A stretch of DNA of 63,893 nt, the filler included, from Dugesia japonica (Eukaryota), in assembly GCA_001938525.1 (NCBI GenBank). It is 5 parts of 5 records of this genome, joined end to end, with 100 filler letters (N's around TTAATTAATTAA, not from the genome) between each part and the next. Parts side by side here need not be neighbours in the genome. Positions count along the whole stretch, not along the records: positions 51,603 to 63,893 come from MQRL01484931.1; 4 more parts are not named here. One strand, given 5' to 3'. The notes below the pieces were generated by a model, which saw only the letters and a program-made list of their open reading frames with translations, was not told where the DNA came from and did no database searches. The position numbers were made by a program, and so were the translations under genes. This document shows, piece by piece, positions 7,866 to 63,893 of the stretch (position 1 is the first letter of the stretch; each line of letters opens with the position of its first letter).

Positions 7866-7918
7866 GTATATTCATGGATTTCATGGAATCAGCATTTGAC
7901 TTACTCTTTTGGAGGTTT

Positions 7919-8480: not shown

Positions 8481-8686
8481 TTCCTCTTCTTCCGTTTCCT
8501 CGAGTTCTTCGCACTATTTTTCAATTTCTTTTTGTTTCCAAACTTTATACCTTTCTTCATTTTGCCGATTCTGTTGTAAATCCTGGTAGATTCCCTACCA
8601 CGGTAGCGACAGTCCTTCGGGATCCTCTTCGCAAATCTTGATAATGTATCTTTCCTCTTCCGTATCGTAATCGGTTTCTGTGTCAC
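8477..8686 (-). CDS. highly basic small ORF (K/R-rich), retroelement accessory; true start uncertain
   Basis: 69 aa, ends KNSRKRKKRK; stop overlaps the next ATG (ATGA). Confidence 0.4.
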   Translation of the reverse strand: MTQKPITIRKRKDTLSRFAKRIPKDCRYRGRESTRIYNRIGKMKKGIKFGNKKKLKNSAKNSRKRKKRK

Positions 8687-9007
8687 TCCATGTCATCTCA
8701 AATCAGTTTGATCCGTCGTTCCAGGTTTTAATCAAATCTGCTCTATCCATTTGAAAGGTTTCAAGCCATTCTGGTTATTAACAAAACGTTAATAGACGTT
8801 TCTCCTTAACGCTATCACAATCGTCATCCTCCGATTTTATTTCTACGCCTATATCACATCGCTTCTGCGCTTGTTGCTTTTTATTTTTATTTATTGGCCT
8901 TTTTCTCTTTCGTCTTTTGCCCTTTGCTACTGTCTTGAGTCATGGATACCTTCTTTATGATCGCTATCCTCTTTATTTTGTTCAGTTTCTAATTTCTTAA
9001 TTAACTC

Positions 9008-9235
9008 TTAACACTCCATTTTTATTGTTTGTAGAAAAAGTAGTGATCCATCTAGATTTTCAACTTCTGTGAACGTCTCGAATTGTCTCCACATTGCCAT
9101 GATTTTCTGTCCGTCTTCCTTTGACGTGTTCAGCTTCTTAACTTTTGTATCTGTATCTTCTATGAAATTCATCAGATCATATCCTGCGAACATGTTCTGC
9201 TTCATCTCTTGCTTCTGGTTTGTTTTATTTTCCAT
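9008..9235 (-). CDS. retroelement accessory ORF, unknown function
   Basis: 75-aa ATG ORF within the same-strand cassette. Confidence 0.4.
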   Translation of the reverse strand: MENKTNQKQEMKQNMFAGYDLMNFIEDTDTKVKKLNTSKEDGQKIMAMWRQFETFTEVENLDGSLLFLQTIKMEC

Positions 9236-9451
9236 CTTTGGTTGAATACAGTCTTTTTCAATGCTGTTTTTTGTCTTTTTAGTGCGTCGAATACTTCTTT
9301 GCTTCGTATCTTCTCCTCAGCTGCGGTTTCTTTGTTTCATAATCTTTTTTCATTGTTTTTCATATACTCATTCATAATTAATGACAGCAGATCACCCCTC
9401 CTTTTGAAAAAGCGACGTCGAGGCTACCACTTGATACGATAAAAGTTGCTC

Positions 9452-10950: not shown

Positions 10951-12512
10951 GTTCCGCTTCCACTATGTTTTCCTTGTCTATCTCTATCTCTTTGGCTGCT
11001 AATTTACATCTAGACACATGTACGATACTTGGTTTTTTAATGGCTTTCCTAATTCTTTTAATTTCAAATTTGTCGCCGTTCTTTCTAGCACTACAAAAGG
11101 TCCTTTATTTGGTCTCTTTAATTTATCACTTTTTCCAATATCGATTGTATGTGTGTTTACCAACACTAGATCTCATTTCTTAAATGCATGGGCTTCCGTT
11201 TTACGATCATATAATTCTTTGTAACTCTTCTAACTAAATCTTGTACGTGCTTCTGCCAAGTTCCACATCTCTCGCATTCGCTCCTTCATGCCGGTTACAT
11301 AATCATCTTTATTCATGTACTTTGAAATTGGTGGTTGATATTCTAAATCGATAGGCATATTGCATTCTCGTCCATACATTAAACTGAATAATGCTGCTCT
11401 TGTAGTTGAATGTACTCCCATCCTATACGCAAATAAACATAAATTTAGATGTTTGTTCCATTCTCTTTGATCTCTTGAGGCGTAACTCAATAGCATTCTT
11501 ATCAAAGTTTGATTGAATCTTTCTAACAATCCGTAGATTTGTGGATAATATGCCGATGTCCGTAATTTGTAAATATTGAAGAAACTCGTAACCTCTTTCA
11601 TCAATTCGCTTATAAAATTCTTTCCTGGGTCCGTTAAGATTTTCTTTGGATTCTGTAGCGCCTAAATACTTTGTCGACAAACACTTTTGCGATTGTCACT
11701 AACTTTTTATCTCCTAACGCAAATGCTTCTGGAAACTTTGATAGATAATCTACCACTGTTAGTATGTATATTTACCACTGTCTGTATATCGCTTTTATAT
11801 CAATTGGTGCTGCTGGCACTAGAATTGGTTGTAATTTAACTTTGAATTCGTTTATTTTTGAATATTGTCTACCCCACTTCTTTAGATGCTGTTTCCTGCC
11901 TTTATTACACTAAACTTTACTCAGATCATAGTGTGTTAGATTATCTAGAATTATCTTAATCTCTTCATCTTCATCTTGATCCTTTTTCAGACCTTTAACA
12001 TTTTTATTCTCAGTATAATATCACACATAATGTATATTAATTACCTCATTATCTTGTATTTTGGTTTCCACTTTTTCTTCTGGTTCGTCTACGAATCTTG
12101 CTCTTGACATGTAATCTGCATTTTGATTTGCTTAAACCGATTTGTATTTCATCTAAGGTGCATATTCTTGTAGTTTCATGGCCCATCTCGCCATTTGATT
12201 TACCTGTAACGGTTTCTGTCCGATCAGTGTAAGTGGTTGATGATCCGTGAAAAGCACTAATTCATGTCCGAGTATCTTCTTCGTCTAACTGGCTTAATAC
12301 TGCTCCCATTGCATATCCACTTGCACCTGTTGCCAATATAAATGGTTTCTTAAAATCAGGTTGCCACAATATCGGCGCGACTATTAATAATTTTCGTATG
12401 ATCTCGAATGTCCTTTGATGTTCATCAGTCCATATAAATTTTACATCCTGACGTACTAAGGATTAAATTGGTTTGACTATCGCCGCAAATTCTTTAATAA
12501 ATTTTCTGTAAT
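10950..12512 (-). pseudogene. pol: pol fragment: RT thumb, RNase H, integrase, GPY/F domain
   Basis: KEFAAIVKP; ATGASGYAMGAVLSQ; TDHQPL; ADYMSR; DYLSKFPEAFAL; LTDPGKNF; YYPQIYGLLERFNQTL; KGPFVV; VHVSRCK; many stops and frameshifts. Confidence 0.9.
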
Positions 12513-13992
12513 TTTCAGTTTCGTGTCTAAGTTGCCTTATCTATTAATAATGGGTCTAATGGGACTCGTTTACGCAGCTCTAAAATATCGTTCACCAATT
12601 TATTTTCTCGGTCATGAGTTTAAATGATTATATAAGCAAATGAATCTAGCTGCGCATTCCAGGCACGCTCTTGTGAGTGTGAAAGTCCGACCTCCTCTCG
12701 GTTTTCCTTACAAAGTTTCTTATACACTCTATTTTTTGACGTTTTAGCTGTTACCTTCGCCTCCAAATTTCGTTTGGGCAGGCGATAGAGGTTCCATGTT
12801 ATCTTATTCTCCTCGCTCTTGACGCAGAGTTTCTTGTTGGATACAGCAGACCTCAAGCGCAAAGAGTTCACTAAATAAAAAATAACGAGAAATTGACGAT
12901 TGTTTGGTCTGATTCTTTCTCAATTATTTATGCTTATTTAAGAGGCGTAAGATTTAAATACTATATTAGGGTTTCTTTTAATGTTTTTTGATTGACTTTG
13001 AGCTTTTCAAATTTAAATTTTCTATCGTTTATTTTTAGTAACCACCTCATTTTTATTTCTTTGTTTTACGTCTTTTTTCTGACCTCTCATTGGTCCAATC
13101 TTTACGACCCTTTTTGGTTTTTCTGAAGGTATAACATTTTTAATTTTATCAAAATTGAATTTCTCTCGTTTTAAATTGTTCAGAATTTTTTATCCCATCG
13201 TTTTTTTATCGTACTGAGCAAAGTTACTTGCTTTTTCTTTTTTTTCGTTAATTGACCTTTAATTTTTTGTACTAATTAAAATTTTTCTTTATTCTTCTTA
13301 ATTCATTTTTGTTAAAATAAAATTATTTTAATTTAATTCTTTAATATGTCTTAATAATAATTGACTATATTCTTTCTTCTTTTTATTAGTTTTATTATTT
13401 TTTTCATTCGTTCTTAATTATTTCTACTTTATTAATTTTTAATTATTTCTAATTTCATTATTTGTAAAATAGCTTTTCTGAGTCAACTTTAACTGAATTT
13501 GTTGATTAATGGGCCCTCTGTTTGGGGTCCTTTCTTTATTATCTCTTCTTTCTAGGTGTTCCACCCCAACAAAATGAAAAGCAAACAAATTATCCACATT
13601 AATAAAAAATTCCTTATTTTTATAGTTTCTTATAATAAAGACACTTTTGTGACATTAAAAGAACTCGTATAATTTACTAAGATATACTCATAGTTATTGA
13701 AATTCGAAATAACTTTTTTTGAATAATACTAATTAACGTTATATTTTATATTTAATAAATATTTTAACCACTTAGTTGTTATTGAAATATGATAAAGGAC
13801 AACGATATTGTAACTCTCATAATTAACTTATCAAGAGCAACACCATACAAAATTTCATGAAATTCAATCAAGTTAAAGTTGTAATCGTAATCGATTATTT
13901 TACAAAAGTTTAATGTAAATATTATTTTATAATATAATTAATTGTTCCGTATTATTTATTAGTGTTACTAAACAATTAATTACGTAATTTAC

Positions 13993-14092
13993 NNNNNNNN
14001 NNNNNNNNNNNNNNNNNNNNNNNNNNNNNNNNNNNNTTAATTAATTAANNNNNNNNNNNNNNNNNNNNNNNNNNNNNNNNNNNNNNNNNNNN
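13993..14092. other. artificial contig-joining spacer N44-TTAATTAATTAA-N44
   Basis: exactly 100 nt; stop codons in all six frames; four identical copies in the window. Confidence 0.95.
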
Positions 14093-14329: not shown

Positions 14330-15930
14330 ATACTAGTAGAAAGTGACGACGATATCGAACATGAAGGAGATGTATTAGCTCCAGAATCTGACCATGACTA
14401 ACAATGTGAAGCAAACATATCTGAAATCATTATTGATGAAACAGAAGAATCTCAAGATAGTGAAGACGATATACCTCTTAGTAAACTACGTTTAAAATTA
14501 AACAAAAACAAGCAGTTCTCTACGCGAAAACTGGAAAATTTACTTATGTCAGAAGAAAAAATAATATTGAGATCTCACAGCTGAATTGAAAGAATTAGAT
14601 TCTCCTTACAGTTTGTTCAGATTCTTTCTGACAGAAAAAATTGTGAGTAAAATTGTCTCCGAGTCTATTTTGTACTTAACACCAAAAAGTCTCTAAAGAA
14701 GAATATCTAGCCACAGATGAACAAAGAATCCCTACAAAAACTCGTTCTACAATCAAACAATACAATCCAAAAAACTCTCATAAATGTGAATACAAATCAA
14801 TTGTCCTTAGTGGTGTAAGCGTATTTTCACATGATTATGAAATTTTTGAAGGAGGTCAGAGTAATAAAATATCTGGTATTTTTTCTGACTTAGGCATGAG
14901 CTCCAATGTAGTACTTCGAGTGACAGAGTCAAATTGGCCAAGACATTCCAATTATAAGTTATTTTTTGATAATTGGTTCAATAGTGTTCATTACAAATTT
15001 ATCTAACAAAGCAGGGTTTAGTTACCTCTTGAAATCATTAGAATAAATAGGATGAGGAATTTTAATATGTCCAAGGAATCGGAAATGAAAAAGAATGGAA
15101 TTTTCTAGCTATGCTAGAAAAAGTGTTCACCATTGATGATATCAAAATATCTGTAATATCTTGGTATGATAATAAAGTAGTGAACATGATGTCTACATTT
15201 GTTGGAAATACTCCAATAGTTTCTCAAAAAAGATTAAATCTATGTAATGTTTCCATTTATAAATGCGGTAAGGGTTTATAATAAATATACTTGAGGTGTA
15301 GACCTTCTCAATTCCATGCTAGGATATCACCTAATATTTCGATCAAGATTAGACCAAAAATGTGGTTTATTCGTATATTTTTTCATTTCTTGAATTTGAT
15401 GGTGGTGAATGCCTGGATTTTATACAGAAAAAATGGCAGCACTTTGGTGAATTAGAGTTGGCCGAATTTAAAATGGTCATTGCTGAATGTTTATGCAAGG
15501 TGAATAAAGCTCCCGTGATTCTTTCAAAAATAAGAGGTCGACCAACACTTGATCATATTTCAGTGAATGTATCCAGAAGAGACCATCATCTGACTTTCCA
15601 ATGGAGAAAGTTCAAACAGACGGTTATCATCATCTGCCCATATGGTACAAAGAAAAGCAAAGGTGCAAATATCTTTGTGATGGTAAAAGTTTCATTAAAT
15701 GTTCAAAGTGTGGTGTCTTTTTATGTATGAACAAAGACCGAAAAGGTTTCATACCGTATAAATCTTAAGGAATAAAATGCATATTGTGCCATATATGGCA
15801 CAGGTTATAAAGATCAACGTTTTTCAAAGAAAATCAATAAATACTTTATAAACCTTGTTTATGTTCTTATTATAACTAATTTTATTCTAAAATTTTTTTC
15901 TTGAAGAAAAAAAAATTATACAGTAAGGAT
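14330..15930 (+). mobile_element. piggyBac-like transposon, degenerate transposase and right end
   Basis: FDNWFNS, WYDNKVVNMMST, YNKY..GVDLL, Cys-rich C-terminus; subterminal palindrome TGTGCCATATATGGCACA (15785-15802); ends before TTAA 15931-15934. Confidence 0.85.
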
Positions 15931-25723: not shown

Positions 25724-27659
25724 CAGTGTCTGTCAAACTTTTTCTTCGCGCGGCACACTTTTTTTAAAAAATTTTCCCGGCACAGTATAATAAAATATCA
25801 TTTTTGTTAGTTTTTACTCTGAAAAGTCAAACCCAAAAAACTTCCTAATTAAAACGGTTTTTTTAATAATTTTTATAATATTTATAGCTTCATAGATATC
25901 ACACAAATTTATTTAATAAAATATAAATCTAATGAGAATGGTGGGCCTGTTTTTCTTTGCAAATTGTTTCTTTACGAGGCTGAATACTTGAGTAGCAAAC
26001 TCGTATTTCTTCATCAAGTTTTCGTAACCGTTCACGCTTTTTTGATTTTATTTCTGTAAGCACAGAAAATCCTAATTCGCATTGATATGATGGACCAAAT
26101 GAAAGCAATTTTTTTATAGCATTGTTGCTTAATACAAGATACTGATCATAAAGCGAAATCCAAAATGCAGACAATTCCAGCTCTTCAAACGATCGTTTCA
26201 AAACCAAATCATTTTTCAAATCAATTAATTGCTCTTGCTGAGAGCAAGCCAAAGTAGATCCCTTGAAATCAGTGAAAGGTTTTTTTTACCCATTCAATTT
26301 CTTTTGTATCAAGTATCGGAAAATATTTTTTCAATGAGTCTGATAGATTTTGAATTGTTTTCTTTATTTACGGCAAGATTCTTAATTTTTGAGCTGATCC
26401 ATTGACGCCAGGAAAACTATATAGCTTCATATTTTGAACAGCTATCTTCCAAAACTGCAATCTTTTCTTGAAAGACTTCAATTTCCCCGTAATTGCAATA
26501 ATGTTTTCACTTTTACTTTGAATGCTCGTGTTCAAATGATTCAATTTCTCAAAAATATCGTTAAGAAATGTTATTTTTACCCACCAAATATTATCATGAA
26601 GAAAATTTAAATCCGTTGTGTACGTTTCAAAAAATGAAATAATTTCAGCTTTCAAGGCAATCAACCGAGAAAATACCTTTCCTTTCGATAACCAACGAAC
26701 TTCAGTGTGGTAAAGCAGACATTTAAAATCCGAATCCATCGAATCGCACAAAGATGAAACAATTCTAGACCGCAATGCACTTGATTTGATGTAATTAACA
26801 ACTTTTATCATATTATCCATCGCTTCTAAAAGCTTTCCAGATAAAGATTTTGAAACAAATACTTCACGATGAATCATGCAATGTACAATTTTTATTTGTG
26901 AATTTTGCGGCAAAAAATGATCGATAAATCCTTTATCTCGGCATTGTATTGATAGAGCGCCATCTGTGCATACACTCACACAATTATTGACCAAAATGAA
27001 AAAATCTTCACCGGTAGTTCTCTCTTTTAATTCACAACAGTAAAAAAAAATTTCGTGATTATCTTGACACCTCTAACAACGTGTAAAATCTATATCAGCT
27101 GGTATTTTTGTTACTTATATCAGTGACTTCATCAACTTGCAATGCTCAAATTTTCTCTAATTCATCGGCTGTATTTGTGAACTTGGTTTTAACTTGAAAT
27201 TCAATATCATTGGGCATGTCTTCAATTTTTCGTTGAATTGTATTACTTGAAAGAGGAATGTTTTTGATTTTATCAATTGCTTCACGACCAATATTCATAT
27301 ATTTCATAGCAATTATCATAGCAGGCATTATAATTCCTTCAGCATCAGAATGTGGTTTTTTCTTTTGAGCTAATAACTGGGCAATAGCTTGTTATTTGTG
27401 ATTTTTTTTTACTTCATTTTTTTAATATATTTTGTTGTTGCAATCTCATTTTCTCAAAATATTCCTTTGGTTTGTCTCTGTATTGCTGATGGTTAGTAGG
27501 GTAAGTGACGCTGGAGTTTGCTAGGAACAATCGATTCGTTCGATAAAGATTTTAAGCATATCATGCAAAACGGTAAAGAACTATTATTATCAGATGAAAT
27601 AAAGCCATATTTTACGTATTCTGCATCGTATTTTCGCTTCAATGTATTTCTAGCTTTGT
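25724..27659 (-). mobile_element. hAT Charlie/Buster-type (SCAND3/ZBED5-like) transposon with disrupted transposase
   Basis: TIR CAGTGTCTGTCAAAC; IPLSSNTIQRKI; VCTDGA; HCMIHRE; HTEVRWLSKG; CELGFS; truncated by contig spacer. Confidence 0.93.
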
Positions 27660-29550: not shown

Positions 29551-29901
29551 GCAAGTCAACAATGGATTTATGTTAACATTGAAAACAGTCGTCAACGTAT
29601 GGCTGACGAAATTGGAGCAATGAACGCAGCAGTTGCTCAAGTTCTTCGATCTGCACAAGGCTTAGCAACTATTGAAGAGAGTGAAGAGGAAGAAATGAAT
29701 GAAGAAATGATAGCTAAAATGCAAAATTCATTCAGTTTAATAACAGTCCATTTACCCAGTTTGATGGAAGAAATAAAAACCGCTGCGTACTATCAAGATC
29801 AATTAATTGATGAAGATGCATCTGGAGAAGACCTAATAGCTGCTGCCAAGCGTTTAGCGGACGCCTTTACTAATTTAATCAAAGCTGCATATCCTCTTGA
29901 A
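29551..29901 (+). CDS. TLN: talin exon (rod R1)
   Basis: ASQQWIYVNIENSRQRMADEIGAMNAAVAQV...SGEDLIAAAKRLADAFTNLIKAAYPLE; AG/GT boundaries. Confidence 0.9.
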
Positions 29902-29954
29902 GTTAGTTCTTTTTTTAGAAAAATCATTTAATAAACATACAAAATTAACATATA

Positions 29955-30077
29955 AAATTAAAGCTTCGATCAAAATTTTTGTTCTTTTTCATTGATATTT
30001 GATAATTCAATTGAATTGTTATCAAATATCAATAAAAAAAAGAAAAATTGTGATCGAAGCTTTTATTTTAAATGAAT
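29955..30077. repeat. fold-back copy of the Penelope-type terminal repeat, ribozyme core deleted
   Basis: inverted arms AAAGCTTCGATCAAAATTTTTG...ATTGATATTTGATAA / TTATCAAATATCAAT...GATCGAAGCTTT. Confidence 0.7.
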
Positions 30078-30941
30078 NNNNNNNNNNNNNNNNNNNNNNN
30101 NNNNNNNNNNNNNNNNNNNNNNNNNNNNNNNNNNNNNNNNNNNNNNNNNNNNNNNNNNNNNNNNNNNNNNNNNNNNNNNNNNNNNNNNNNNNNNNNNNNN
30201 NNTATATTTCATTATAAGTTATTATTTTAGTCAATTTTAGTTTAATTTTACCTAATTATATTATCGTTATATATTATAATTATATTATACGTAATTAATT
30301 ATATTATAATTGTCATTATATCAATCTGAAATAATAATTAAAATTCTTCAAATTTAGCAGCATAGAATTATATTTTTAATAAAATCCAATACATCATTAG
30401 TAACAGTTGTTTCTTCGTAGATTTATAATATATGGTAAATTTAGTTAACAGAAGTATTTTGACATATGTTTTAAACCTAATCAAATAAAATAAAAATATC
30501 AATTAAAACATTCAATATTTATTTTATTTTTTTAATAAATCATAACCACATTATGAATTTTGCTATAGGGTGGATATTAAATAATCAAAAATTTGACAAC
30601 TTAATTAAAAATCATTATCTTTCTGAACAGTAACACCGTTAATCAGAAACACAAGAATCTTTTACAGTGGAAAACATGAACATGGAAAATTTTATTNNNN
30701 NNNNNNNNNNNNNNNNNNNNNNNNNNNNNNNNNNNNNNNNNNNNNNNNNNNNNNNNNNNNNNNNNNNNNNNNNNNNNNNNNNNNNNNNNNNNNNNNNNNN
30801 NNNNNNNNNNNNNNNNNNNNNNNNNNNNNNNNNNNNNNNNNNNNNNNNNNNNNNNNNNNNNNNNNNNNNNNNNNNNNNNNNNNNNNNNNNNNNNNNNNNN
30901 NNNNNNNNNNNNNNNNNNNNNNNNNNNNNNNNAAAATTAAG

Positions 30942-31283
30942 GATCAGAAGCGATCATTAAACAGAAAAGATATATTTGATGCTGCTAATGTGGTTGGTGA
31001 AGCTAGTAGTGATTTATTGCAACAAATCACAGAACAAGAAAACATTCAAATGGAATTGAAGAATGGTCGCCCGTATTCAATTATTATGTTAACAGAAGAA
31101 GAACAGTTGTACCAAGAAGAATTATTACGATTAGCGAAATGTGTAGCTAATGAAACAACAAATCTTATTAAACAAGTCAAAGTTATTGCAGTTGAAGCTG
31201 AAAACCCAAATGAACAAAAGAAAGTAGTTATGGCTGCAACTGAAACTGGATTAGCAATTAGTCAATTAATTGCTACGACAAAA
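30942..31283 (+). CDS. TLN: talin exon (R1-R2); acceptor may be 30948
   Basis: RKDIFDAANVVGEASSDLLQQI...LLRLAKCVANET...AISQLIATTK. Confidence 0.9.
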
Positions 31284-31335
31284 GTATTATGAAAAGTTTT
31301 GTATATTTAATATATAACATGTTTAAAATTAATAG

Positions 31336-31545
31336 ATAGTAGCACCAACAATTGAACAATCAGTTTGTCAAGAACAATTAATATTTTCTATTGAAGACGT
31401 CAGTAAAGCAATTCAAGTAGTTGTTGAAAATTCTAACAAAGCTACTCAATCTGAAGAATTGCAAAGTCTGACTACTTCGGCAGCAAATCAGGTTCAAGAA
31501 GCTTTGGATACTTTAATGAAACATCTTAGAAAAGATTATGACAAG
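31336..31545 (+). CDS. TLN: talin exon (R2)
   Basis: after a 52-nt intron; IVAPTIEQSVCQEQL matches talin VVAPTISSPVCQEQL. Confidence 0.92.
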
Positions 31546-31786
31546 GTAACTAATTATGTTGATAATTTATTATCATGTAATTATTACAATATTTTAAAGT
31601 TGTATCTTAAGTTATTTTACATTTCAAATTGTATACAAATAAGTTTTATAATTTTGAATTGCAAAAAAATTAAATATAACATTTTATATCATTTAAGTTT
31701 TCACTGCATAAAGCTGAAATACAAGTTTTTTAAGTTGATTCTTTTCAAAATATCATTTTTTTTATAATGTTATAATAATTTTAACT

Positions 31787-32690
31787 AGGGTTGCCAATAT
31801 TAACGATTAATCGATCAGAATTTTTAGCGGCTAATTATTATCATGATAATGATGAAATTTCAATTATTTATTTGGTTGGTTAATTATTTACTGACTTTAT
31901 AAAGATATATTAATACACCCATAAGCTTCTCGCTTTAACGGCCAACTTTAACCTTTAAATGCATGATGTACCATATATGCTACATCATGCATATAAGATT
32001 AGTAATATAAAGAGAGACCGTACAGCGAGGTATGGGTGTATTTAGTTTCATCGGAAATTATACATTTTTATTATTTTATACTGTTAAAAATGGCTGAAAA
32101 GAAGATCAGCTATTATAAACACGTTAATGGGAAGTTGCGTAACCATTTTGGTTTTAAAGTAGACGATAATAATGAAGTTATTGATGGTGAGAAGATTTAC
32201 TGTAGTATCTGTGATAAAGTCTTGGACTTTGTTGAATATGTTGCTATCGAAGAGTGTGGGCGGGAAAACTTGAAACTGAAAGCAAATATTATTAAGCCAA
32301 TTTGTATTGAGGCGAGACAATATTACAAACAGTATTGTCCATTGGATTGTTAGTTAAGTATTCTAATCTTCAACAGATAATTTTATTATAATTACGCGTC
32401 GCACTTCAGAATGATGAATAAAATTGCCGACAAACTATTGACAGCATTATTCATAGAACGTTTCAAGAAAAAAGTTTTAAATTGAAAGTGTAGATCAGCA
32501 AAGCCAGTGAAATTTCAATTACTAGTGATTTTTAGTCCTCTCTCTGAAATGAGTCCTTTTGTGGTGTAGCAGTGCAGTAGAGTGACAGCGATTGCTCACT
32601 AAAATCTTTTACATTGGACTGTTGGAGTAACCGAACGTCACTTTGCAGAAAACATTGCTGAAATCTACACAAACCTGTTGGTAGTTATCG
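31787..32690 (+). mobile_element. hAT (ZBED1-like) remnant with BED finger
   Basis: TAGGGTTGCC end; MAEKK...HFGFK...IYCSICDK; later ERHFAENIAE; right boundary approximate. Confidence 0.6.
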
Positions 32691-33794
32691 CGCGTTATTT
32701 TTGAAGTAGTATAGGGTTGTGGGTAGTTGATGGATTTTGGTGGGCAATGGCTTGTTGGAAAGGTGATGTGATGGGGAGTATGATTGTGTAAGAGTGGTAG
32801 TAAATTGAGGAATTTTTAATCGATAATTTGATTCGTAAATTTTTGTAAGTAGCATGATGAGGTTAAAAAAAATTTCCTTCCGGTGTAAAGATAAATTTCC
32901 TTCCTTACCTTATGGGTGTAAAGATAATTAATTATTGTGTTAGGTTAAACCATTGAATCATACAGTGTGTAGATGTGTGGATCAAAAAAAGGAAAAAATA
33001 TCTGTTGAGATGCCTTTGAGATTATTGCAAAATTAATATGATTAAATTAAAAAAAAGTTTTGGCGAAACGTAANNNNNNNNNNNNNNNNNNNTATGACTA
33101 ATTTGTCAAAGTTTAAGTAATCAAATAAGTACTTTAATAAATTGATAATTTAAGACCTTACTATTTGTTTGTTATTTATATTATAAATTTTATAATTTTA
33201 TAATATAACATTGTATACAATTTATATAATTTATTTTAATTTTTTAAAAATATTTTGAAATATTTTTAAAAAATATTAGGAAAAAGGGCACAATAAATAT
33301 AATTGTTGGTTAATGTCAATATATAGATATAGAATATTTTGTAAAATATACAATTATTAAATTAGTTATTATTTTTTTTATCATGCCTAATCAAACTGCA
33401 GAATACAATAGGCATAATTTACTTTTTATTTCGTTTTCATATTTTGAAGTTGTAAAATATATAATAAAGATACTACAGAAATACTAAAGGAAATCTATTT
33501 ATAAAAATATAAAAATTATTAATTACTAATTTTAATCATAAATTACAATTACTATTATTTTCCATAAAATTGTAAGAAAAGATTAATTGCATATCCAAAT
33601 TTTTTAAAATGTCAGTATTGATTTCATTTGAAAATTTAGAATAAGAAAATAATGTCCATTTTAAACTGAAATAACTCAAATAAGACATATACTCTTTATT
33701 AAATAGTTTTAATCATTATTTATAAGATATATAATTGTCTTCATTTAAAATAAAAGCTTCGATCAAAATTTGTTTTTTTNNNNNNNNNNNNNTT

Positions 33795-33829
33795 AATTCT
33801 GTATTTCGACTTAGTCTTCTTCAGGAATT
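33795..33829 (-). ncRNA. minimal hammerhead ribozyme motif, inverted twin
   Basis: exact reverse complement of 33837-33871. Confidence 0.65.
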
Positions 33830-33836
33830 GACTTTC

Positions 33837-33871
33837 AATTCCTGAAGAAGACTAAGTCGAAATACAGAATT
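33837..33871 (+). ncRNA. minimal type I hammerhead ribozyme motif (cleavage site variant CA instead of UH)
   Basis: AATTC-CTGAAGA-A-GAC TAA GTC-GAAA-TACA-GAATT. Confidence 0.7.
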
Positions 33872-33994
33872 AAGCTCAAAATACCATAAAAACAAATTTT
33901 TGATCGAAGCTTTTATTTTAAGTGAATTCAGAAAAACGATCAATTGTTACGCCCAACAATTATTCTCGCAATAATTGCAATTGTAAAATATAAT

Positions 33995-35134
33995 TGTCTG
34001 TATTAATTTTGTGTTTGTATTAATATTTCGAAAAATTCTGTCATTTCAATTGAAGATTTCAAACATGGAATAAAACCAAATGTGTGCCATTTATCTTTAT
34101 GAGTGTAAACTGGGCCACAAAGCTGCAGAAGAAAGTCGAAATGTCAACTGTGCATTCAACCAGGGTTCGATAAATGAGCGCTCGATATAGAGATAATTCT
34201 AAAGTTTTAGAGATGGATTGAGAGCCTGGAAGATGTAGAAGATCGTGCACCTCTAGCTTCCAAGGATAATGAAAAATCGAAAGACTTGGGTAAGGCAGGT
34301 CCCCGAGCTAATATTCGACGCATTACCCAAAAGTTAAATGTCAATCATGTAGCAATTCTGAATCAATTCAAACAATTGGGCAAGGGGAAGAACCTTGATA
34401 AATAGGTACAACATGACTTAAGTGAAAAACAAAAAGTCAGCGTTTTGAAGTATGCTCGTTGCTTTTTCTCTGGAATATCTACAACCCTTCCATCGAGTGG
34501 ATAGTGACATGCGATGAATAGTTGGTATTATATATATGGTATTAACATGACAAAACTCCTCAAAAATTGCCAAAACCCAAACTTCATCCAAATAAGGTTA
34601 TGGTAAGCGTTTGGTGGTATTCGAGAGGCATTATCCAGTATAACTTTTTGTCTCCCAGTGAAACTATTACAGCTGACAGATACTGTAAAAAGATCGAAGA
34701 TATGTATAAAAAGTTACAACATCTTCATCCGCTTTTGCTTAACAGAAAACGTCTATTTGCTCTCCATGATAATGCCCGGCTAGATACTGCACAAATAAGA
34801 CGGTTACATGACTTGGGCTACGAAATTTTTCCTCATCCTCCACAGTTGTCGGATCTCTCCCCTACTAACTAATATATTTTTAAACATCTTGCTATTTTCC
34901 TTGACGAAAAAATCTTTAAAAACCAAGGTTCTGACAAAAATGCTTTCTGTGACTTTATTGAATCCAGTGCAGAGGATTTATATACTACTGGAATGTGAGT
35001 GCTTGTTTCCTGTTGGCAATCATGTGTTGATTGTAATGGTTGCTATTTTATTTAATAAAGTTTAATTATCTTTGAGTTATTTAAGTTTGAAATTTTTAAA
35101 GTCCAAAACGGACATTATTGTCTTACTGGCCTAA
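33995..35134 (+). mobile_element. mariner transposon, disrupted transposase
   Basis: IVTCDE; PKPKLHPNKVMVSVWW; LHDNAR; HPPQLSDLSPTN; right TIR ending GGCCTAA + TA. Confidence 0.92.
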
Positions 35135-35479
35135 TATTTTAAATATTAAAAAAGTTTTAACTGTGAAAATATTTAAAAATTTTAAAATAAATAAGATAAA
35201 ACTTTTAAAATAAATAAGATAAAACTTTCAAAATAAATATTTTAGTAAAAAATTAATAAAGATATTAAAAGTTCTAAATATAAAAAAATTAAGTGAAATA
35301 CAAAGAATAAACTTAAAATTGATAAAATTAATTTTAAAATAACATCGAAATTAATTAGTTTTAAAATGGAATTTTTTAAAAGTTTTTTTATGAAGAAATT
35401 ATGAAAAGAAAAAGTGGAATCTCAAATTTTTGGGCTTATTTCATTTGTTTGAAAAAACCATAAATATTTCATGATTTAA

Positions 35480-36471
35480 AAACTCTTTTTAGTTTAACGG
35501 TAAGTGTTTTAGACTTATTCAAAAAATTGCATTTGGTGACATTTAAAATGGAAGGCAGAAAAGAACATTTTAGGGACATAATGGTTTTTTTTGGAAGAGT
35601 GAAAACGCTTCTCAGACCCATAAAAATAAATGCTTTATGTACGCTGAGAGTGCTATGGATGTTACAGCATATCATAAGTAGTTCAGAAATTTTCACTTGA
35701 TAAATTTTAATCTAATCGATTGTGAGTAGGATATATTTCTAATAATTAAATAATGATTTGACCCGTATGTATGTTGCGATTGATGTGACCGTATGTATGT
35801 TGAGATTGATGTGACCTGTATGGAGATTGGTAATTATATAATATATTTCTCGAATCATTACATCACTTATATTCCNCATATTTAAGAATGCAATTGGTGT
35901 GTAATTGCCACTTTAGTCTATATATAGTCTATATCTAAGGAAGGCAAAGCTATGCATTTAATGTGATTGCCAGGGAATAATTTCTTATGATCATTTGCCT
36001 AAAAACCAAACTATTAATTCGGAAAAGTACCGTTCACAACTAAGCAATTTAAATTAAGCAATATACTAGAAGTGACCTTAACTAGCAAACAGAAAGGATA
36101 TTGTGTTTTAAAGCAATGTTAAACCATACTTGTCTTTGGCCATCCGGCAGAAACTTCTACAACTGGACTGGGATGTTTTAGTCTATCCACCGTACTCACC
36201 AGATCTTGCGCTCTCTAACTATTATTTATTTAGATCGCTTGAAAACAGTTTATGTGATAAGAACTTTTCTTGCTTGGTATATTTGAAGTCACTTGAATCA
36301 GCCCCTCGGTCTGAAACCTTAGAGATTTTATGAGTACGATTATAAGCTACTAGACAGATGGAGAAATATCATCCAATACAGGGCTAATATTGATGAAATG
36401 TAATTTATTTTAAATAAAATTATATTTTAATTTTATTTATAAAAAACGAACGAACTTATGCACAGACCTAA
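35480..36471 (+). mobile_element. second mariner remnant, internally deleted
   Basis: MEGRKEHFR N-terminus at 35548; YPPYSPDLALSNYYLFRSL; right TIR ending GACCTAA + TA. Confidence 0.85.
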
Positions 36472-36806
36472 TATAATATACTTGGTTATCTAAATAACAA
36501 AACAATTGTATTTTTAATTTATAATTAAGATTTTGAATTGATTAATTTGTAATATATTCATGTATATCTGTATTTAATGTTATTATTTTATAATTAATTT
36601 ATATTTCGTTATATATTAATAGTATTTAATGATTGTTTCTTTACAAATGAGTTATTTAATAAAACTATTTTTATAATTTTGTTTCGTATGAAATTTTCTG
36701 ATTTTGTTTTTTTATATGAAAATTACAATTTATTATTAATATAAATTTTTATAGACTTTACTTGGAAGTCATAAATTTCTTTTATATATAATATTCCATT
36801 TTCCAG

Positions 36807-37049
36807 AATGATAAATTAGATCATTTCCTTTTGGCATATGAAGATATTCAAGCAGTCGATGATAACGAAGATCCTAATAAACTCATTGCAGCTGCAAGAA
36901 GACTAGCTCAAGCTACTGCAGCTATGATTTCAGAAATTCAGTTAAAAGCTGTAAATGAAGAGTATAAAACTGCAGATGAACGAGATAAGCTGCTTAATGC
37001 AGCCAAACAGTTAGCTGAAGCTACTTCCTCTTTGATAGATTGTGCAAAA
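36807..37049 (+). CDS. TLN: talin exon (R3)
   Basis: LIAAARRLAQATAAMISEI...KLLNAAKQLAEATSSLIDCAK; TTCCAG acceptor. Confidence 0.92.
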
Positions 37050-51502: not shown

Positions 51503-51602
51503 NNNNNNNNNNNNNNNNNNNNNNNNNNNNNNNNNNNNNNNNNNNNTTAATTAATTAANNNNNNNNNNNNNNNNNNNNNNNNNNNNNNNNNNNNNNNNNN
51601 NN
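51503..51602. other. artificial contig-joining spacer
   Basis: N44-TTAATTAATTAA-N44. Confidence 0.95.
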
Positions 51603-55299: not shown

Positions 55300-56470
55300 T
55301 AATGGTGCTCGGCTGTTCACTGAATAATTCTGGAAAGATTCCAGAATTTCATGTGCTTTAAATTAAAGACAATTAAATAATTCTTTTACAAATNATCACT
55401 TAAATCTGTAATTNACTTTTTAAGACAAAATCTATAGCTTTTCTAGCATTTAGATGAAACTATTCCATTTTGTTTTACAGTCTAGTATAAGACAATATTA
55501 TTTACCAAATTTACTAACTGGATATTTCTGTAAAATATCATTTTTCTTTGGTGACCGTCGAAATGTTTTGATTATTTTTCTAAACTTTTTCATAATTTTC
55601 CATAATTCTGTATAAGTAATATAATATCCTCCTAACCGAGCATCATGTTCAATAGGAAATTCATCATCATTTCCAGAATACTCCGCATCATTTTCATCAT
55701 CAGTAAATGAATTGTTTTCAAAATCCGAATTTAGAGAAAATAATTCTTCTTAAAAATGATTTTCATCTTCGATTGTTGTTGCTTTATAAATTACGCTGAT
55801 AACAGCAAATTTCATTTCATGAACAAAACACAATGGTTGGAAAGCAGGAACCAGTTTACCTACTTTTCCATTACTGCAGCACCATCGTTTGTCAAACATA
55901 AAATATTTCTTTCAAAGAACAAAGCAAATTCTGTCAGCAATTTTTGCAAAAACTCAATGCATTTCATTGCCGACAGACTCTCATTAATCTGCACTAGACC
56001 TACGTTCCCATATTTCAATTTCGAATGAATATTAATATTCTGATATCGGCAATTTCGCATTGATATTCATTTCTCGAATGTGATACTGAAACCCTTTCCA
56101 GAAACTTTACACTCTGCAATTTCTTAAATCAATAAGGTTTTGAGACTTTTACAATAATCAATAATAGTTTATTTTTATGTATTTCTTGTGATTTTTGCAC
56201 GCGGCTTAGATTTGTCGATTTACATTTGATGTCTACTCCTCAAACTAGAAAAAGGCTTGTTTCCTTTTAAAATATTTGTATTGTGCATTGTTTCAATGAG
56301 TGTGGAGCCTGCATGTGGATCCACCAGCAATTTTAATAATTCTAGAACACGTTTTCAATTTTGCATAACAAACTTTATATTTTTTAAGATAGTAGAACCA
56401 AATTGAATTGTTATATTAGCCTTTATGATGTTTCACAAATTTCAGATTTTCTTTCATGGCAGATTTGTAT
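55300..56470 (-). mobile_element. decayed hAT (Ac/ZBED-like) transposase
   Basis: ILCLTNDGAAVMEK, BED-like N-terminus, acidic insertion, many stops. Confidence 0.65.
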
Positions 56471-56545
56471 CAGTATTAAAATACTAACAAATATGAATAA
56501 ATTAACATTATCAAATTACGGATTTAATTAAATAATCATTAAATT

Positions 56546-57082
56546 TGTTGGGGTACCACGTAACCAGCTCGATCACAATTGATGTTGTAGAATAAGATCT
56601 AGTGTCTCAAATCAATATCTTTGGAATAGAGCCGGTGACTCGCAACTCGTAGTTCGAGTGTATAGCTCGTGTTTCTTTGGTTCGGGTACATTTTTTGAAA
56701 ACACTCGCTTTGGTTCATTGCGATACCATCACTAAGCTTACAAGTTACTAAACCAATTTAACATTTGTCAAGGACTCTATGATCTTTATCGCTGTCCATC
56801 ACCTTCCCGTTAGTCGCTTATAGATTCATTCTGTGTTTTGGTTATCCATGTTTGAACCCCTCCCTTTATGATCAATATCCTTAAAGATACTACTTTGAGT
56901 TGCCCGTCAGAATAACTAATTACTCGAAACACTATCAACCTGCTCGTTTAATGATCTTTAAACTCGACAGAAAGATTTATTATCATCCGCGCTACTATAC
57001 TCATTAATGCTATCATTATTCGTATTCGATAATCCGCACATTACCCCATATTTGGAATAGGGTAACCATTGTCGCCACAACA
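56546..57082. mobile_element. short or deleted solo LTR of the TGTTGGGG family
   Basis: TGTTGGGG...CCACAACA inverted termini; TSD not evident. Confidence 0.55.
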
Positions 57083-57362
57083 TTTTTAAAAAATAAATTA
57101 TTATTAATCATCATTATACATTAGGATATATAATTAACAAATTCAAAAAATCATGATTACGAGTAATTATTCATTAATGACTATCGATTGCGAAAACAAT
57201 ACTTAGTTTAGAAAGTGTATTAACATTTACGGTTACATTATGATTACTTTTATCGTTGAAAAATAAAGATTCATTTAACTAGAAAGTTATATAGCTGGTT
57301 AATACAAATTTTGATTACATAATCCAATATGTTACATAATTACTTACGTGAATTGGGTATTT

Positions 57363-58278
57363 CAAGTGTTGCCAACCTTTTTCGTATTTCGCCCCACTAA
57401 AAAATATTATTTAACTTTCGCACCCCCATTAAAAAAACATTATTTTATGGCATGCAATTTATGGTAAAAGATATTAAATAGGTTAAAAAATGGCAAATCA
57501 AACAAAATTATTAAAAATTTAAACATAAAATGAAATCATATTTAATGACTTTTTTGTTCTTGTTTTATTCATTTTTCGAATCTTGGATTTTTTTTTGCTA
57601 AATGCAATTCTCAGATCTGATTGTGTATTCAGGCGATTTCTATGCTTCGTTTTTATTGATAGAAGGGAACTACATCCAAATTCGCAAAAGTAAGTTGTGA
57701 CAAATGGAATAAGGAGAGATAGTGGTTTCTTTCTAATCTTTGGGTACAAATTTAAAGTTGAACACCAAAAATCTTCAACAGTTTCATTTTCGAATTTTAT
57801 TTTGAGATGACGATTAGCCCTCAAATCAACTATTTCATCTTTCAAATGGTCATCATCTGACATTCTTTCCAAATTGTACAAAAAATGGTTTATAATCCAT
57901 TCTTCGGAAGATTTTAACTCTCAACAAAAGAAATATCCATCAAACGACTTTGATAGCATTTCTAAATTATTTATAATCTCTTTGTGAACCATAAGAATTA
58001 AAGTTCCAGAAAAATTTCATAAAGTAATAGAAAATTTGAAAAATTACCAACCTCAATTCTCCGAACCCAAAGATTTAATTTTTCTTTGAAAGCAATTTAA
58101 ATATTAAACTAAGTAAATTTAAATTTAATAATTAAATTACGTAAAATGATAATTCAAATATGTAATGAAATTTATTTTGTCATTAGTTGAGTAAAACAAA
58201 ATATTTTTTAAAAATTGATTATTGTTAATTTTATTTCGTACCCCCAAAGGGTGCGTGCAACCTGGTTTGGAACCCCTG
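57363..58278 (-). mobile_element. internally deleted hAT (Charlie/Buster) element
   Basis: TIRs CAAGTGTTGCCAACC / GGTTTGGAACCCCTG; TSD GGGTATTT / GGGTATTG; PFVTTYFCEFGCS...KTKHRNRL. Confidence 0.9.
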
Positions 58279-58289
58279 GGGTATTGGCT

Positions 58290-59034
58290 ATTTTTCATAT
58301 TGGCTATTTTTTTGGAATTCCGAAACTCATCGAATCCAATTGACTGTCCTTAAAACCCCTGTAACTTTCTTCCTGATAGAGCTACGAAATGAAATTTCTA
58401 CAATCTATACATTTTTTCCAACCATAATTTTCTTAATTGCTAATTTATTTTTACTAGAAATACCTCTTTTTCTTCTGTTTTAACTTTCATGAATTTACAT
58501 CTGTTTAATAATATCTCATTTAGTTTGAATGATTTTTCTTATTTTGATAAATTATTAATAAAAAATTTTCTTTAAGGGGATTTATTTATTAATTTTCATT
58601 ATATTCTTTCATTTTAAGCCAAATATTAAAATTATTTTGTCCTTCTGTCTTTCAAATAATTCATTTTATTTATTTTATTTATTTTTCTGTGGCTAATTGT
58701 TTATTTAATTTAGCATTTTTATTCCTATTAGTAAATGATTTAACCCCTTCGTTACTTGCAGCTTTTTCGCATTCTCTTTCCTATCTTGTTATATGTCTTT
58801 AGTTGCGCTGTTATTTTTCCTAGATATTTCTTCTTCACAGTAATAAAAGGTTATTGGTTATTATTTGTTTACTTTAGCCTCTTATTTAGTTTCTTCATAT
58901 CTAGTCATTTATCTGGCAAACTTTGGGCCTTTAAGGCCTTGAACTCTTTACTTCTTTTGCCAATATTTTCTTGCACGATTCCTGCCCCACCGATCGCTTA
59001 TATGGTTTTTTTTATCGAGTATTCTACCCCAACA
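58290..59034 (-). mobile_element. LTR fragment of the TGTTGGGG family
   Basis: ends TATTCTACCCCAACA on +; left boundary approximate. Confidence 0.45.
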
Positions 59035-59645
59035 AATTTTAAAATATAAAATTACCTAGTTAATTTATTTTTTATTTCTATAAATTTAAATTTCCAACAC
59101 CAAAAGTTAAANNNNNNNNNNNNNNNNNNNNNATAAATAATTAAATTGTTCTTATTAATCTTATTATTCTTGTATTAAAATATGCAAAATTCGTATTGCA
59201 AAAAAATTTAAATACAATACAATACACAAGAATAAATATTGCAATAACTAAATACATAGAAATAGTGAGATACATACAATTTAAATAGAAAAACACTAAA
59301 ATTATTAATTTAACTTAGTTTTAATTTTTTATTTCATTTAAATATTTAAAATAGTATTTAACAAGAATTAATTTTTGTTTAAACACTGAAAACCTGTATT
59401 CAAATCAATCAATACCGATGTAAATTAGGCGGTATATTGGTATTGTATTCCCTAATCATAGCTAACGGCTGAGTCACCATAGAATTGGTATAGTTCACTC
59501 ATATCTTTTGTTGCTTTAACAATAAAACAAGTCGTTAATGCTTTTATTCATCATCGGTTTGATTCCTGCATTCGCAAAATAAGATTAATTTACAAAAATA
59601 TTTTGTCATGCAATTATATTACTACCAAATATATATGAATATTAT

Positions 59646-62086
59646 TGTTGGGATTCCAACCTAGTTGTTTGAAGAAAATTACGGCTGGGGGAAAAATCAG
59701 CCCTCGGGGGATCCCTCGAAGAATTTACCTAAAGTCCCTATTTAGGTATTCAGTGTAGAGCTGTTGACTCTCAAGCCTACTTGGAGTTCAAGCTCATACA
59801 CCTTTTGTTCTGGTTCATTGTTTCCCAATTTAAATCAAACTAATCAAGATATTAACCATAGATTACTAAGAAAATTTATTTTGTTCAAACAATTTTAATT
59901 ACATAAAATTTAGAGCCTCAGGATCAAGCCACTGGTCTGGCTCGTCATTCGAAAAGTCGAATGCGGCCTCGTTATCATCGCTATTTCACCTGACCCATGT
60001 TTCTAATTCCAGGAGGGGGGAGGTCGGCGATGTATCTTTTCAAAAAATCGATTTTATGAACGAGGATTTGCTTTACTCGATTTGCGAGCTCGTCCTGTTT
60101 TTTATTTACTATTTCTAATTTCTTAATGAGTCAGTTTAGCTGTGTCAGGTGGCGTAGTAGTGACCGCTCGCATCGTTTAGAGAAATGTTGCTCCAATAAA
60201 AACTTCTGAATAATTTTGTGACAGCGGCGTAAACTATTTGGAAACCTTATTCTTGACACTAAACAAAAATAAACAATTTATTTAACAGGCATAAAAAGAG
60301 CATAAAAAGGCCAAAACTAATAATTAAAATTATCAAATTAAGATTAAGAGGGTAATTCTACTAAATTTTATTTCTAAATAAATTCTGGTTCGTTTTACAA
60401 CAGATGGCCGAAACCGTGTCAAGAACGAGGGGTCTGCGTCGCTTTATCGATCATGAGCGGTGACAAAGGTATGTGTTTACACATCTCCACCAAATCAGTG
60501 ATCAGTTTATTTTCATGGTCATGGAGAGACCGGATAATGTCGGCGAACGATTCGAGCTGGTGCTTCCAGAGGCGCTCTTGGGAGTGTAAAGCTTCTGCTT
60601 CCAGCCTACATTCGTGGCATTGGGCCTTGTAACGACTAACCTTGGCCTGAGCAGTAGCGATTTCTGTTTCCCATCTTTTCTTGGTTAACCGATACAAATC
60701 CTAGGACATGTCTATGTCCTCACTATTCTCACGGATCTTTTTTGTGGGAGCGATGGAGCGATTGCGTAGACCACTCACTGCACAGCAAAAAAAGGAATGA
60801 TTATCATGGTTGATAGAACAATCAAAGACTACTAGTAGATTAACAACATAATCTGACAAAAGTTAGAACTATATGAATCGTTGCGATAATTTACCTGATA
60901 AATAAAATAAATGGGAACTTAACATCTGAAGAAGAGAGAAAGGAATATGAATTACAACCACAGTAAATTTCTTTTTAAAACACTAAATGAGATAATTATC
61001 GTAATGGGATTGTCCGTTTGTCAGACCAATCTTCATTCTGAGGTCATGTTGGTCGTGATCGCTGAAATGGTTTTCATATTAAAAATTAATTATCCCTATA
61101 AAAACTGGGTTATGTCTCAAGGGTTTAATTAAAATGAGATAAAAGGATTAATCATTGTTATTTTCTATTTATTAGTCATATGGCATTCTACCATTTGAAG
61201 ATTCAAATAAATGATTTTTCTTGTTTGATAATCCTACTGTGGCTTTATTTCAGTGGAAAACATGTCTCGGAAATCTATATACTACGACTGGGAGCACAAA
61301 CAACTCTATCTAATCGATGAACATTAATTGATAGCATAGTTAATGGAGAATATCTAGAAATTCATAGTTTACTAATTGGACATTTATTATATATGACACG
61401 CAAAATTATCAATATTACAACTAGATGATAGAACAATCATACTTACTGATTTTTAATGCTGGATACTGCAACGGTAAGATTTGTTGTAACTAATTCCAAT
61501 AACTTCTTTTCTTTTGATCGATTAAAATACCACGGTTTGTAACCACAATATTCCTTTTTAAACAGCACGCTATTAAATTCAATAGATAACTACTGTGATA
61601 GTAGACAGAAATTTTTTTTTAGAGGGTAATTTCATCTAAAATTCGGGGAGTTTTATACCTTTTCTAATTTATCTTCTTAGGGGCTTCCCAGTTTTTCCTG
61701 CCCCGATGATTTTGGACAATCCACAGAAAAGTTATCCGTCTTTTACTGATTTTCGATGTAATTAATTTCTTTTTTCTGAAATAATTAATTAATTTTTCTT
61801 TCTTAATTTCTGGTTTTGATTTTGATAATAATTTAATTTATTTGAATATTCTGGTGGCTTCTTTAAAATTATGTTTAATTTTCCGTTATTTTGCCAATAG
61901 CTTTTAATATTTTCTTTATATTTTCCAATTTTTTTCGATCTTATTTTGGTTATTTATTCGTGATTTGTTTCCAAAATTGGATTGATTATTAATTAACCTC
62001 TTTGTGTTATATTATTTCTCTCCTTGATGGCTGATGTTTGGGTCCCTGTTTATATTTTCTTCTTGAACGGGTGTTTCACCCCAACA
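59646..62086 (-). mobile_element. 2441-bp solo LTR-like element of the TGTTGGGG family
   Basis: TGTTGGG...CCCCAACA termini; 4-bp TSD TTAT both sides; right end resembles the 13500-13571 end of the pol-bearing element. Confidence 0.75.
60419..60925 (-). pseudogene. spliced coiled-coil ORF inside the solo LTR (exons 60925-60895 and 60777-60419; one internal TAG)
   Basis: 117-nt GT-AG intron with pyrimidine tract joins an ATG exon in frame to the 92-aa ORF. Confidence 0.45.
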
Positions 62087-63893
62087 TTATTTAAATAACT
62101 TGTGATTAATAATTATGTTAAGTAAATTTGTATTTCAATTTAGTTTTTGAAAATATTGCAGAATTTATTCCACAATTCAATAAATACAATTTCTGTTATT
62201 TGGGATTTATTTTTTGTTGCATACTTTGTATTTTTAACATTAATTTTTATATTAAACTGTGATTTGTTTATATTTAAATTATGTATAAATAAATAAATAA
62301 TTTGTATAAATAAAATCAAATATTTTCTAATTAATTATTGTTTAATTAATATTAATTATTTAGTATGTCATTCATTTATTTAATTCAAAAGCACCGTTTT
62401 AATTTACGCATTGGAACGTATTTTATTTTATTCCGCTCCTGTTAGTATCTTTACTGTTAGAATTTAAACTTATAATGTAAAATAAAGGCCATTTATAATT
62501 TATTAATTTCTTTGCTAGCATAAAGTGAATATTACTACAAAATTTTAATGGCTAATTTTAATTATAATACCACTATTTATATCAATTCTAGAGGGTATGC
62601 ATATTGTGATATCAAAACTTTTCTAAAAAAACTGTTCATTTGCTAATAAAACAGAATGATACTAATGACGTACCGAAATGCTAGATACGTAATTTCTTCA
62701 TATTATATCTGATAAATTTAGTTCATAACTTGACATTCAACAATTATAATAGAACTTTCAAAACATATTAATTGCTATTTACAATATTTTAATAATTTAT
62801 ATATATATATATATACATGTGTGTGTGTGTTGTTTTGAAACAGATTGAATCACGGTTATATTAATTATCTGACAGTTAAAAATAAATATATAAATTTAAT
62901 TGAGATAATGTTATGTATTGCTTTTGTTTATATTATCACGGAACACAGTCTGGAAAGCGCTGATATATAGGATAGCTTTAATTTAACGATCCAAACACTT
63001 AATTTTGTGTTTATTTTTTTTTGATTTTCTGTCATAAATATTTCGAAAATTAATTTGGTATATAACAATTCATTAAAAAATAGTAATCTATAAGTTAGAA
63101 AATAATCTTCATTAAATCAAGATATTCTTTTAAATTTTTATAATATTTCTTAACAAAAACTAGCAAAATTTTCAAAATAAACCATTTAAATATTCATTTT
63201 CCTATAATCATTATTATTTAAGATTCATTATTTAGAATTTTCATTTGTGATCTACAAAATATTAACATGTTGGTGGACAATTGCGTCCATAGACGTCAAC
63301 ACGAAGTTCACAATATGACATGACGACAATAGCCGTCCAAAATGAAACGGTCGTTTTCAGACACTACTGCTATAGCAGCAGAAATGTGCATTTACAGACG
63401 TACTGTAACAAGCCTAGTGCCACATTTGCAAAAGTTGTTGTTTGAATTTATTTTACTTTTTCTAGTGACCATCAATGCTTTTAAAGGAAATTAAAATTTT
63501 CAATATTAAAATGTAATAAAATGTTTATTATTTGTAGATAGAGATAACCAATTTGCTACAAAATTAATGTTTACATTAAATAATTGTTAAGTAGCACTGA
63601 AGTTACGTATAATCAAATTAATGTAACAATAATACTGATTAATCCAACTTTATGCATGACTTGCTTTTGAAAATTCGCGTAAAGCTTACACTAAAAACGC
63701 AAGCATTAAAAAATCGATAATTAAAATAAGCCTAATAATTTTTTGAAAAGCTTTTTTAGCAATTTTAATTTATTAGACAATATCAAATGGAGTACCGGGA
63801 GTCTTATGATAAAGAGATTGATTTCGTAAGACTGTAAAGTTTTGTTTTACACCGTACTTGTTAAATAAATTTATTACCACAATTTGATCGACT

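Follow-up and report, generated by a model that had tools for sequence, protein, structure and literature searches.

Element A, a 2441-bp insertion in the window (the whole 63,893-nt stretch of very AT-rich Dugesia japonica DNA analyzed here; Table 1), probably represents the solo LTR of a Ty3/Gypsy-type retrotransposon, and within it lies a sequence, exon 2, which by comparison of two copies is a real coding exon under purifying selection. The explanation that we favor, by a modest lean, is that this selected exon, probably together with a second, is carried inside the LTR and would be spliced into accessory messages by an intact element. The copy at hand is dead, with stop codons in both exon 2 and a further candidate, exon 3. 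In LTR retrotransposons, the LTRs are regarded as non-coding, and annotation pipelines search for additional ORFs solely in the sequence that they enclose.

Table 1. Positions in the window of element A, its parts, and the related elements B and D.
Feature	Position	Strand	Remarks
Element A, solo LTR-type insertion, 2441 bp	59646..62086	-	7-bp inverted ends; no gag/pol, no internal direct repeat
Left TTAT, copy of 4-bp target-site duplication	59642..59645	.	Empty-site joints skip 2441+4 bases
Right TTAT, copy of 4-bp target-site duplication	62087..62090	.	Direct sequence reading
A-rich 5' part, inferred start of U3	61500..62086	-	First bases resemble starts of B, C and D
Candidate upstream splice donor GTAAGT	61441..61446	-	Weak exon side; from motif list
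Top-scoring splice acceptor of element A	60926..60943	-	Directly before ATG; score 15.8, rank 1
Exon 1, 31-nt ATG micro-exon	60895..60925	-	Phase-1 donor CAG/GTAAAT at end; likely internal; no counterpart in B
Predicted GT-AG intron, 117 nt	60778..60894	-	39 codons, 2 in-frame stops; no junction read seen
Exon 2, 359 nt, 118 codons	60419..60777	-	Internal stop 60703-60701; purifying selection; predicted long helix
Exon 3, basic, predicted helical	59981..60258	-	Phase-1 acceptor at 60259; one internal stop; likely alternative last exon
Acidic, aromatic stretch, neighboring frame	59901..59980	-	Beyond frame break near 60010-60020; possibly old end of exon 3
Inferred R/U5 end	59646..59880	-	AATAAA at 59880; donor-like TAG/GTAAAT at 59728
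Element B, 5' part, LTR-type start like that of A	12515..13571	-	Acceptor at 12871; exon-2 homologue 12870-12515, 2 internal stops
Element B, pol remnant: RT connection, RNase H, integrase	11060..12519	-	Directly behind exon-2 homologue
Element D, second solo LTR of A's superfamily	56546-59034		Same ends as A, AATT duplication, 3' motif common with A

Termini and target site of element A

The insertion has TG...CA ends with a short inverted repeat, as LTRs do: TGTTGGG at 59646 is matched by CCCAACA at 62086, and in the X9 contigs a related sequence begins aligning exactly at 59646. A target-site duplication of 4-6 bp together with an empty site is a second mark of LTR insertion, and both are present. 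The TTAT duplication is 4 bp only (the 5-mers differ), and joints skipping 2445 bases, i.e., 2441 + 4, were found at least in the DNA runs X1 and X3, in two RNA reads of X12, and in X8 (for the first comparison of runs, among the 15 joints listed of 49). Among TGTTGGG...CCCAACA pairs no more than 15 kb apart in the window, matching 4-bp flanks are found in two of five. Six-frame reading and self-comparison revealed no gag, pol, or internal direct repeat in element A, and neither a paired LTR nor a primer site nor a polypurine tract was found for its family in the window. An earlier note on this DNA had proposed these coordinates, the inverted termini, and the TTAT duplication, and the coordinates are exact; its description of a solo-LTR-type insertion is likewise supported by the termini, the duplication, the empty sites, and the absence of gag and pol.

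Element A inserted into a target (59600-59645 and 62087-62175) that is itself repetitive host DNA, of which many copies lack the insertion. Across 59400-62126, single-copy contigs of X1 and X3 depart from the window sequence by about 2-3%, in element and flank alike, and vary in length within the predicted intron and near 61091; they probably represent a second allele of this locus. Scans of public contigs yielded no loci related to element A, and there are no Rfam matches within 56000-63893.

Linkage to a Gypsy-type pol

A related LTR joined to pol, in the order RT, RNase H, integrase, is supplied by element B. Its exon-2 homologue lies 702 bases from the LTR-type start, and directly behind the stop of the exon come the RT connection, RNase H (Pfam RT_RNaseH_2, E 8e-16), and integrase; the nearest named match of this pol region is a 1537-aa gag-pol protein. 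The RT core has been deleted, the gag region is also missing, and no 3' LTR was found before the gap at 5956. The simplest reading would be that a deletion joined the 5' LTR of B to its pol, which would place the exon inside the LTR; B could also be two neighbors fused by deletion, and we infer a common origin for the LTR part and pol across the deletion junction. Behind the integrase, within 5957-13571, about 5 kb of disrupted coding sequence contains cysteine pairs, several transmembrane or hydrophobic segments, and a terminal coiled coil; this extension is env-like by position only and had no Pfam match above cut-off.

In the 700 nt upstream of its exon, element B has neither a strong donor nor an ATG micro-exon, which points to a donor outside U3. 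Element B is decayed, and may just have lost its exon 1.

Another possibility, to which we attach very little weight, is that element A is not an LTR at all, being either a non-autonomous DNA transposon of Ginger-like type or a doubly deleted element whose ORFs were formerly internal. Ginger-like transposons have TG...CA ends, make 4-bp duplications, carry long inverted repeats at their termini, and encode a transposase of the integrase type. The 4-bp duplication would suit such an element, as would the lack of any paired copy of A in the window; however, the inverted ends of A are just 7 bp long and A contains no transposase. In element B, moreover, no pol lies upstream of the start, no LTR end separates the start from the exon, and the two lead on to RNase H and integrase. 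Element D, with ends identical to those of A, a 4-bp duplication, and a common 3' motif, also speaks for the LTR assignment.

Coding status of exon 2

Exon 2 of element A and its homologue in B are 46.6% identical over 116 ungapped codons (E 2e-27), with identities of 0.60, 0.72, and 0.35 at the three codon positions. Over 113 codons, pS is 0.82 and pN 0.34 (Fisher p 8e-14; silent sites are near-saturated), a dN/dS-type comparison that indicates purifying selection. The exon frame has one stop in A and two in B, vs. 8-20 in each of the other five frames, both copies together. Homology begins at a pyrimidine-AG/TG acceptor, in the same phase in both copies and the best-ranked acceptor in B, and finishes at the stop codon; identity drops to 32% upstream of the acceptor and to 17% downstream of the aligned exon. 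ORF length was rejected as coding evidence: it was matched in 28 of 300 shuffles.

The internal TAG of exon 2 looks particular to the element A copy, because most related contig depth carries another letter in that codon (about 1275 of 1330 in X1, from 13 contigs, and 1074 of 1117 in X3, from 16 contigs); element B is open at the aligned codon. Summed contig depth, which is not the same as copy number, is 1577-2399 for DNA in two exon-2 bins vs. 7-19 across 60772-61555. In the exon-2 bin lying between the two deep ones (60576-60673), related depth is just 31-47, so that low related depth in element A is no proof of non-conservation.

A start codon can be supplied by a spliced leader. A model in which such a leader is spliced straight onto exon 2 was rejected: the first triplet past the acceptor is a stop in both A and B.

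Splice signals and exon layout

On the coding strand of element A, the top three acceptors are those at 60926, 60259, and 60778, and the donor at 60894 is joint best. Element A has four strong acceptors, where 1000 local shuffles average 0.74, and none of these shuffles produced the layout acceptor-exon-donor-acceptor; both figures are optimistic, since the splice scoring is ad hoc and cut-offs were chosen after the scores were known. The exon geometry of the earlier note (a 31-nt ATG exon, a 117-nt GT-AG intron, a 359-nt exon, and about 129 codons with one TAG) is borne out by the coordinates, exons 1 and 2 together giving 129 codons plus a stop. That gene model omitted the top acceptor of the element, however, and its placing of the ATG exon first is not supported: this exon has its own acceptor at 60926, and element B has no counterpart of it. 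Because so strong an acceptor directly precedes it, the ATG exon is probably internal and would need an exon upstream.

The decayed helical ORF previously noticed further downstream is also present. It opens at an acceptor (60259/60258) and closes at 59981, with the neighboring frame running on to about 59900; it has one internal stop and is predicted to be helical. Since it opens at an acceptor with the phase of exon 2 (60778 and 60259 are both phase 1), the arrangement suggests that exons 2 and 3 may be alternative last exons for one donor. Exon 3, of which there is a single copy, is probably a second coding exon in the LTR. The acidic, aromatic stretch beyond it is covered by many related contigs (bin 59890-59987), and a family-conserved segment lies at about 59683-59780 within the inferred R/U5 end.

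It is also conceivable, if quite improbable in our estimate, that exon 2 is a real LTR-borne exon but owes nothing to exon 1 or the 117-nt intron, both being incidental features: the 60778 acceptor would be fed straight from a distant donor in a leader or gag region, or the “intron” would be the decayed front of a single unspliced ORF. The homology between A and B begins only at the acceptor, the length of the intron is a multiple of three (exons 1 and 2 thus share a frame even unspliced, through 39 codons with two stops), and just one allelic contig per DNA run differs across exon 1 and the intron, all of which would agree with this; the phase and joint-best rank of donor 60894 would not, nor would the failure of any of the 1000 shuffles, under the ad hoc scores, to reproduce the full layout.

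A motif of about 13 bases in the predicted intron (60806-60819, approximate) recurs past the 61446 donor (61426-61439), by chance or possibly through an old duplication. Similarity among the A-rich LTR starts (A vs. B, C, and D) beyond the terminal motif, and at the far end of B, was set aside as being within the range of shuffled sequence, except between C and D.

Transcripts and a possible local promoter

Among eight runs, out of 24 listed, no read or contig spans a junction for any element A intron, the RNA coverage being too thin to count against splicing; at the same minimal coverage, neither pile-ups of transcript starts or ends nor any sign of expression from this copy was seen. The raw RNA runs X12, X15, and X11 (10-14 million records each) gave 52, 11, and 10 aligned reads, nearly all of them partial. 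Contigs from X8 and X9, which are RNA only by guess, cover exon 2 and are absent from 60792-61231, but this is no proof of splicing because DNA conservation follows the same pattern.

Could the LTR nevertheless be a self-contained gene? In such a gene, a promoter in the A-rich first 600 nt would drive a transcript with an untranslated first exon, spliced from donor 61446 to acceptor 60926, through the ATG exon, and on to either exon 2 or exon 3; any intact solo LTR would thereby be able to produce the proteins, much as the U3 promoter P2 of MMTV drives Sag. We regard this as a doubtful reading that still merits attention. All the required signals occur in order inside element A, contigs of X8 and X9 closely matching the locus cover 61329-61787, and a U3-internal promoter has its precedent in MMTV, as described in the available part of PMC9412291. 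Element B, however, lacks exon 1 and a strong donor, the X9 contig across 61446 is unspliced (it may be DNA), and promoter and start site in element A are only putative. The earlier suggestion that each solo LTR deposits an expressible cassette is not supported: its ATG exon has an acceptor of its own and no B counterpart, the promoter is putative, and the eight runs showed no junction. Rather unlikely, too, is the boldest version, in which the LTR of an invertebrate Gypsy lineage has taken up an alternatively spliced accessory gene of several exons, promoter included, that encodes two orphan coiled-coil regulators. If an own promoter did exist, the many solo LTRs of the genome would amount to scattered genes, open to expression, through which the family or the host could be regulated, and one of the regulators, with a basic head and an acidic tail, would be transcription-factor-like.

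Predicted use of the exons

Returning to the explanation favored at the outset, recombination between two LTRs would have left element A. Its exons, which would sit in U3, would in an intact element be read from the 3' LTR on RNA whose transcription starts in the 5' LTR: a donor close to the element's 5' end would be joined to the U3 acceptors, in the A subfamily by way of the ATG micro-exon, and one phase-1 donor using either exon 2 or exon 3 would yield two small proteins. Reading of the U3 exons from the 3' LTR through a 5' donor is favored because element B keeps the acceptor without a local donor. The sibling LTRs C and D, which have no homologous exon, argue against it. A solo copy would be silent unless a host transcript were spliced into it; whatever the promoter, each solo LTR scatters strong acceptors and a coding exon, and can trap host transcripts.

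Properties of the predicted proteins

The model of the exon 2 protein, built from two sequences, is a single 75-residue helix (residues 27-101) with pLDDT above 90 and pTM 0.42, and 0.65 of heptad a/d positions are hydrophobic; the coiled-coil product first suggested for this locus is thus upheld as helical and coiled-coil-like.

The exon 2 protein has no credible homologue in any library searched. A word-indexed protein collection gave no candidate of near length, comparison of the two-copy alignment with longer proteins confirmed none of 1259 candidates, and in the Atlas only generic coiled-coil clusters were found, with recognition below threshold. Pfam matches were to coiled coils alone, all under cut-off. 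The sole match among 1.84 billion representatives was a protein of 14 tandem units, each 25% identical, dismissed as an artefact; the best PDB sequence matches (E 0.16 for exon 2, 0.47 for exon 3) were taken as chance. The exon 2 model matched none of the viral folds, and contig scans confirmed none of 106 viral and none of 229 metagenome candidates. Five viral matches to the terminal 17-mer of element A have nothing else in common with it. No described viral accessory protein is significantly homologous to the exon products in Pfam, in PDB sequences, or, for the exon 2 model, among viral folds.

By analogy with CERV and Rev, the likeliest role of the exon products, though less probable than not, would be that of oligomers regulating the element's own transcription or the export of its RNA.

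Comparison with known systems

Retroviral LTRs can carry genes: HIV nef and foamy-virus bel2 overlap U3. Like these and MMTV Sag/Naf, whose ORF lies in U3, element A has protein-coding sequence within an LTR, and in exon 2 this sequence is under selection. Unlike MMTV Sag, HIV nef, and bel2, which belong to Retroviridae, the linked pol is Gypsy-type, the genome is invertebrate-like, and two alternative exons are likely; Pfam, PDB sequences, and viral folds revealed no resemblance to them in sequence or fold. Element A works like the Sag/Nef layout, yet is no member of those families. Sag itself can be driven by the promoter of either LTR, according to the available part of PMC9412291.

A closer functional parallel may be CERV of the Ty3/Gypsy element Cer1 of C. 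elegans, a spliced, lineage-restricted product on which the export of unspliced RNA depends; it has a leucine-zipper-like motif, and an acceptor stands before its initiator ATG (PMC10309623, as far as the available text goes). Element A resembles it in having a Gypsy accessory product (here predicted) that is helical or zipper-like and lineage-restricted, with an acceptor before the ATG. In the same partial source, however, CERV is a 517-aa protein from gag-region exons, and the Cer1 LTRs are about 490 bp; the exons of A lie in a 2.4-kb LTR, no homology with CERV is seen, and the likeness of function is by analogy only.

The planarian giants Burro and GYPSM1 have internal accessory domains and an env between gag and pol; LTR-borne exons are unmentioned in the available part of a review of these elements (PMC6431247). 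An AT-rich animal genome, accessory ORFs, and (in element B) a long extra coding region are common to these and the present elements, as far as the same text allows comparison; the env of Burro/GYPSM1 lies between gag and pol, in contrast to the transmembrane-rich extension of B, which follows integrase. None of the MATH, BIR, BCL2, and ankyrin domains of the Burro/GYPSM1 polyprotein was found in the scanned broken pieces of B, which itself lacks the gag region. In plants, extra ORFs of LTR retrotransposons (Ogre, Retand, Grande, and env-like) are conserved and some are expressed via splicing; in the accessible text of PMC7264820, they are assigned to internal sequence, for the most part behind pol and ahead of the 3' LTR, and are never described within an LTR, whereas the exons of element A are inside one.

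In the literature searched, part of it in partial text and with the primary Burro paper, supplements, and repeat libraries outside its scope, no description turned up of a coding exon carried by the LTR of an invertebrate Gypsy element; such an exon may already be annotated in the primary Burro paper or in repeat libraries. If the present reading is correct, an acceptor-led, selected exon in a Gypsy-type LTR extends the Sag/Nef layout to an invertebrate retrotransposon, and adds a protein family missing from all the libraries searched.

Other elements in the window

Element C (1-3039) has an LTR-type start at 3039 like that of D; next come a gag containing zinc knuckles (Pfam E 2e-7) and, at the edge of the window, a stretch resembling a protease. 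Just outside this start, an intact 91-codon coiled-coil ORF (3435-3710), unrelated to exon 2, is possibly another LTR-borne ORF, C having inserted into its element. Element D is interrupted at about 57360-58240 by an inserted hAT transposase fragment (Pfam E 0.016) similar to 26025-26237. An LTR-like relic, E (48640-50960), shares its 3' motif with D and its middle part with C and D.

The N gaps around the TTAATTAATTAA spacer at 14037-14048 and 51547-51558 are an assembly joining mark, not biology. Further segments at 14680-15730, 25929-27391, 34546-35065, and 51235-51546 we take to be piggyBac, hAT, mariner, and GIY-YIG endonuclease fragments, from the way they read. A talin gene with several exons lies on the + strand at 29551-38387, with transposon fragments in its introns.
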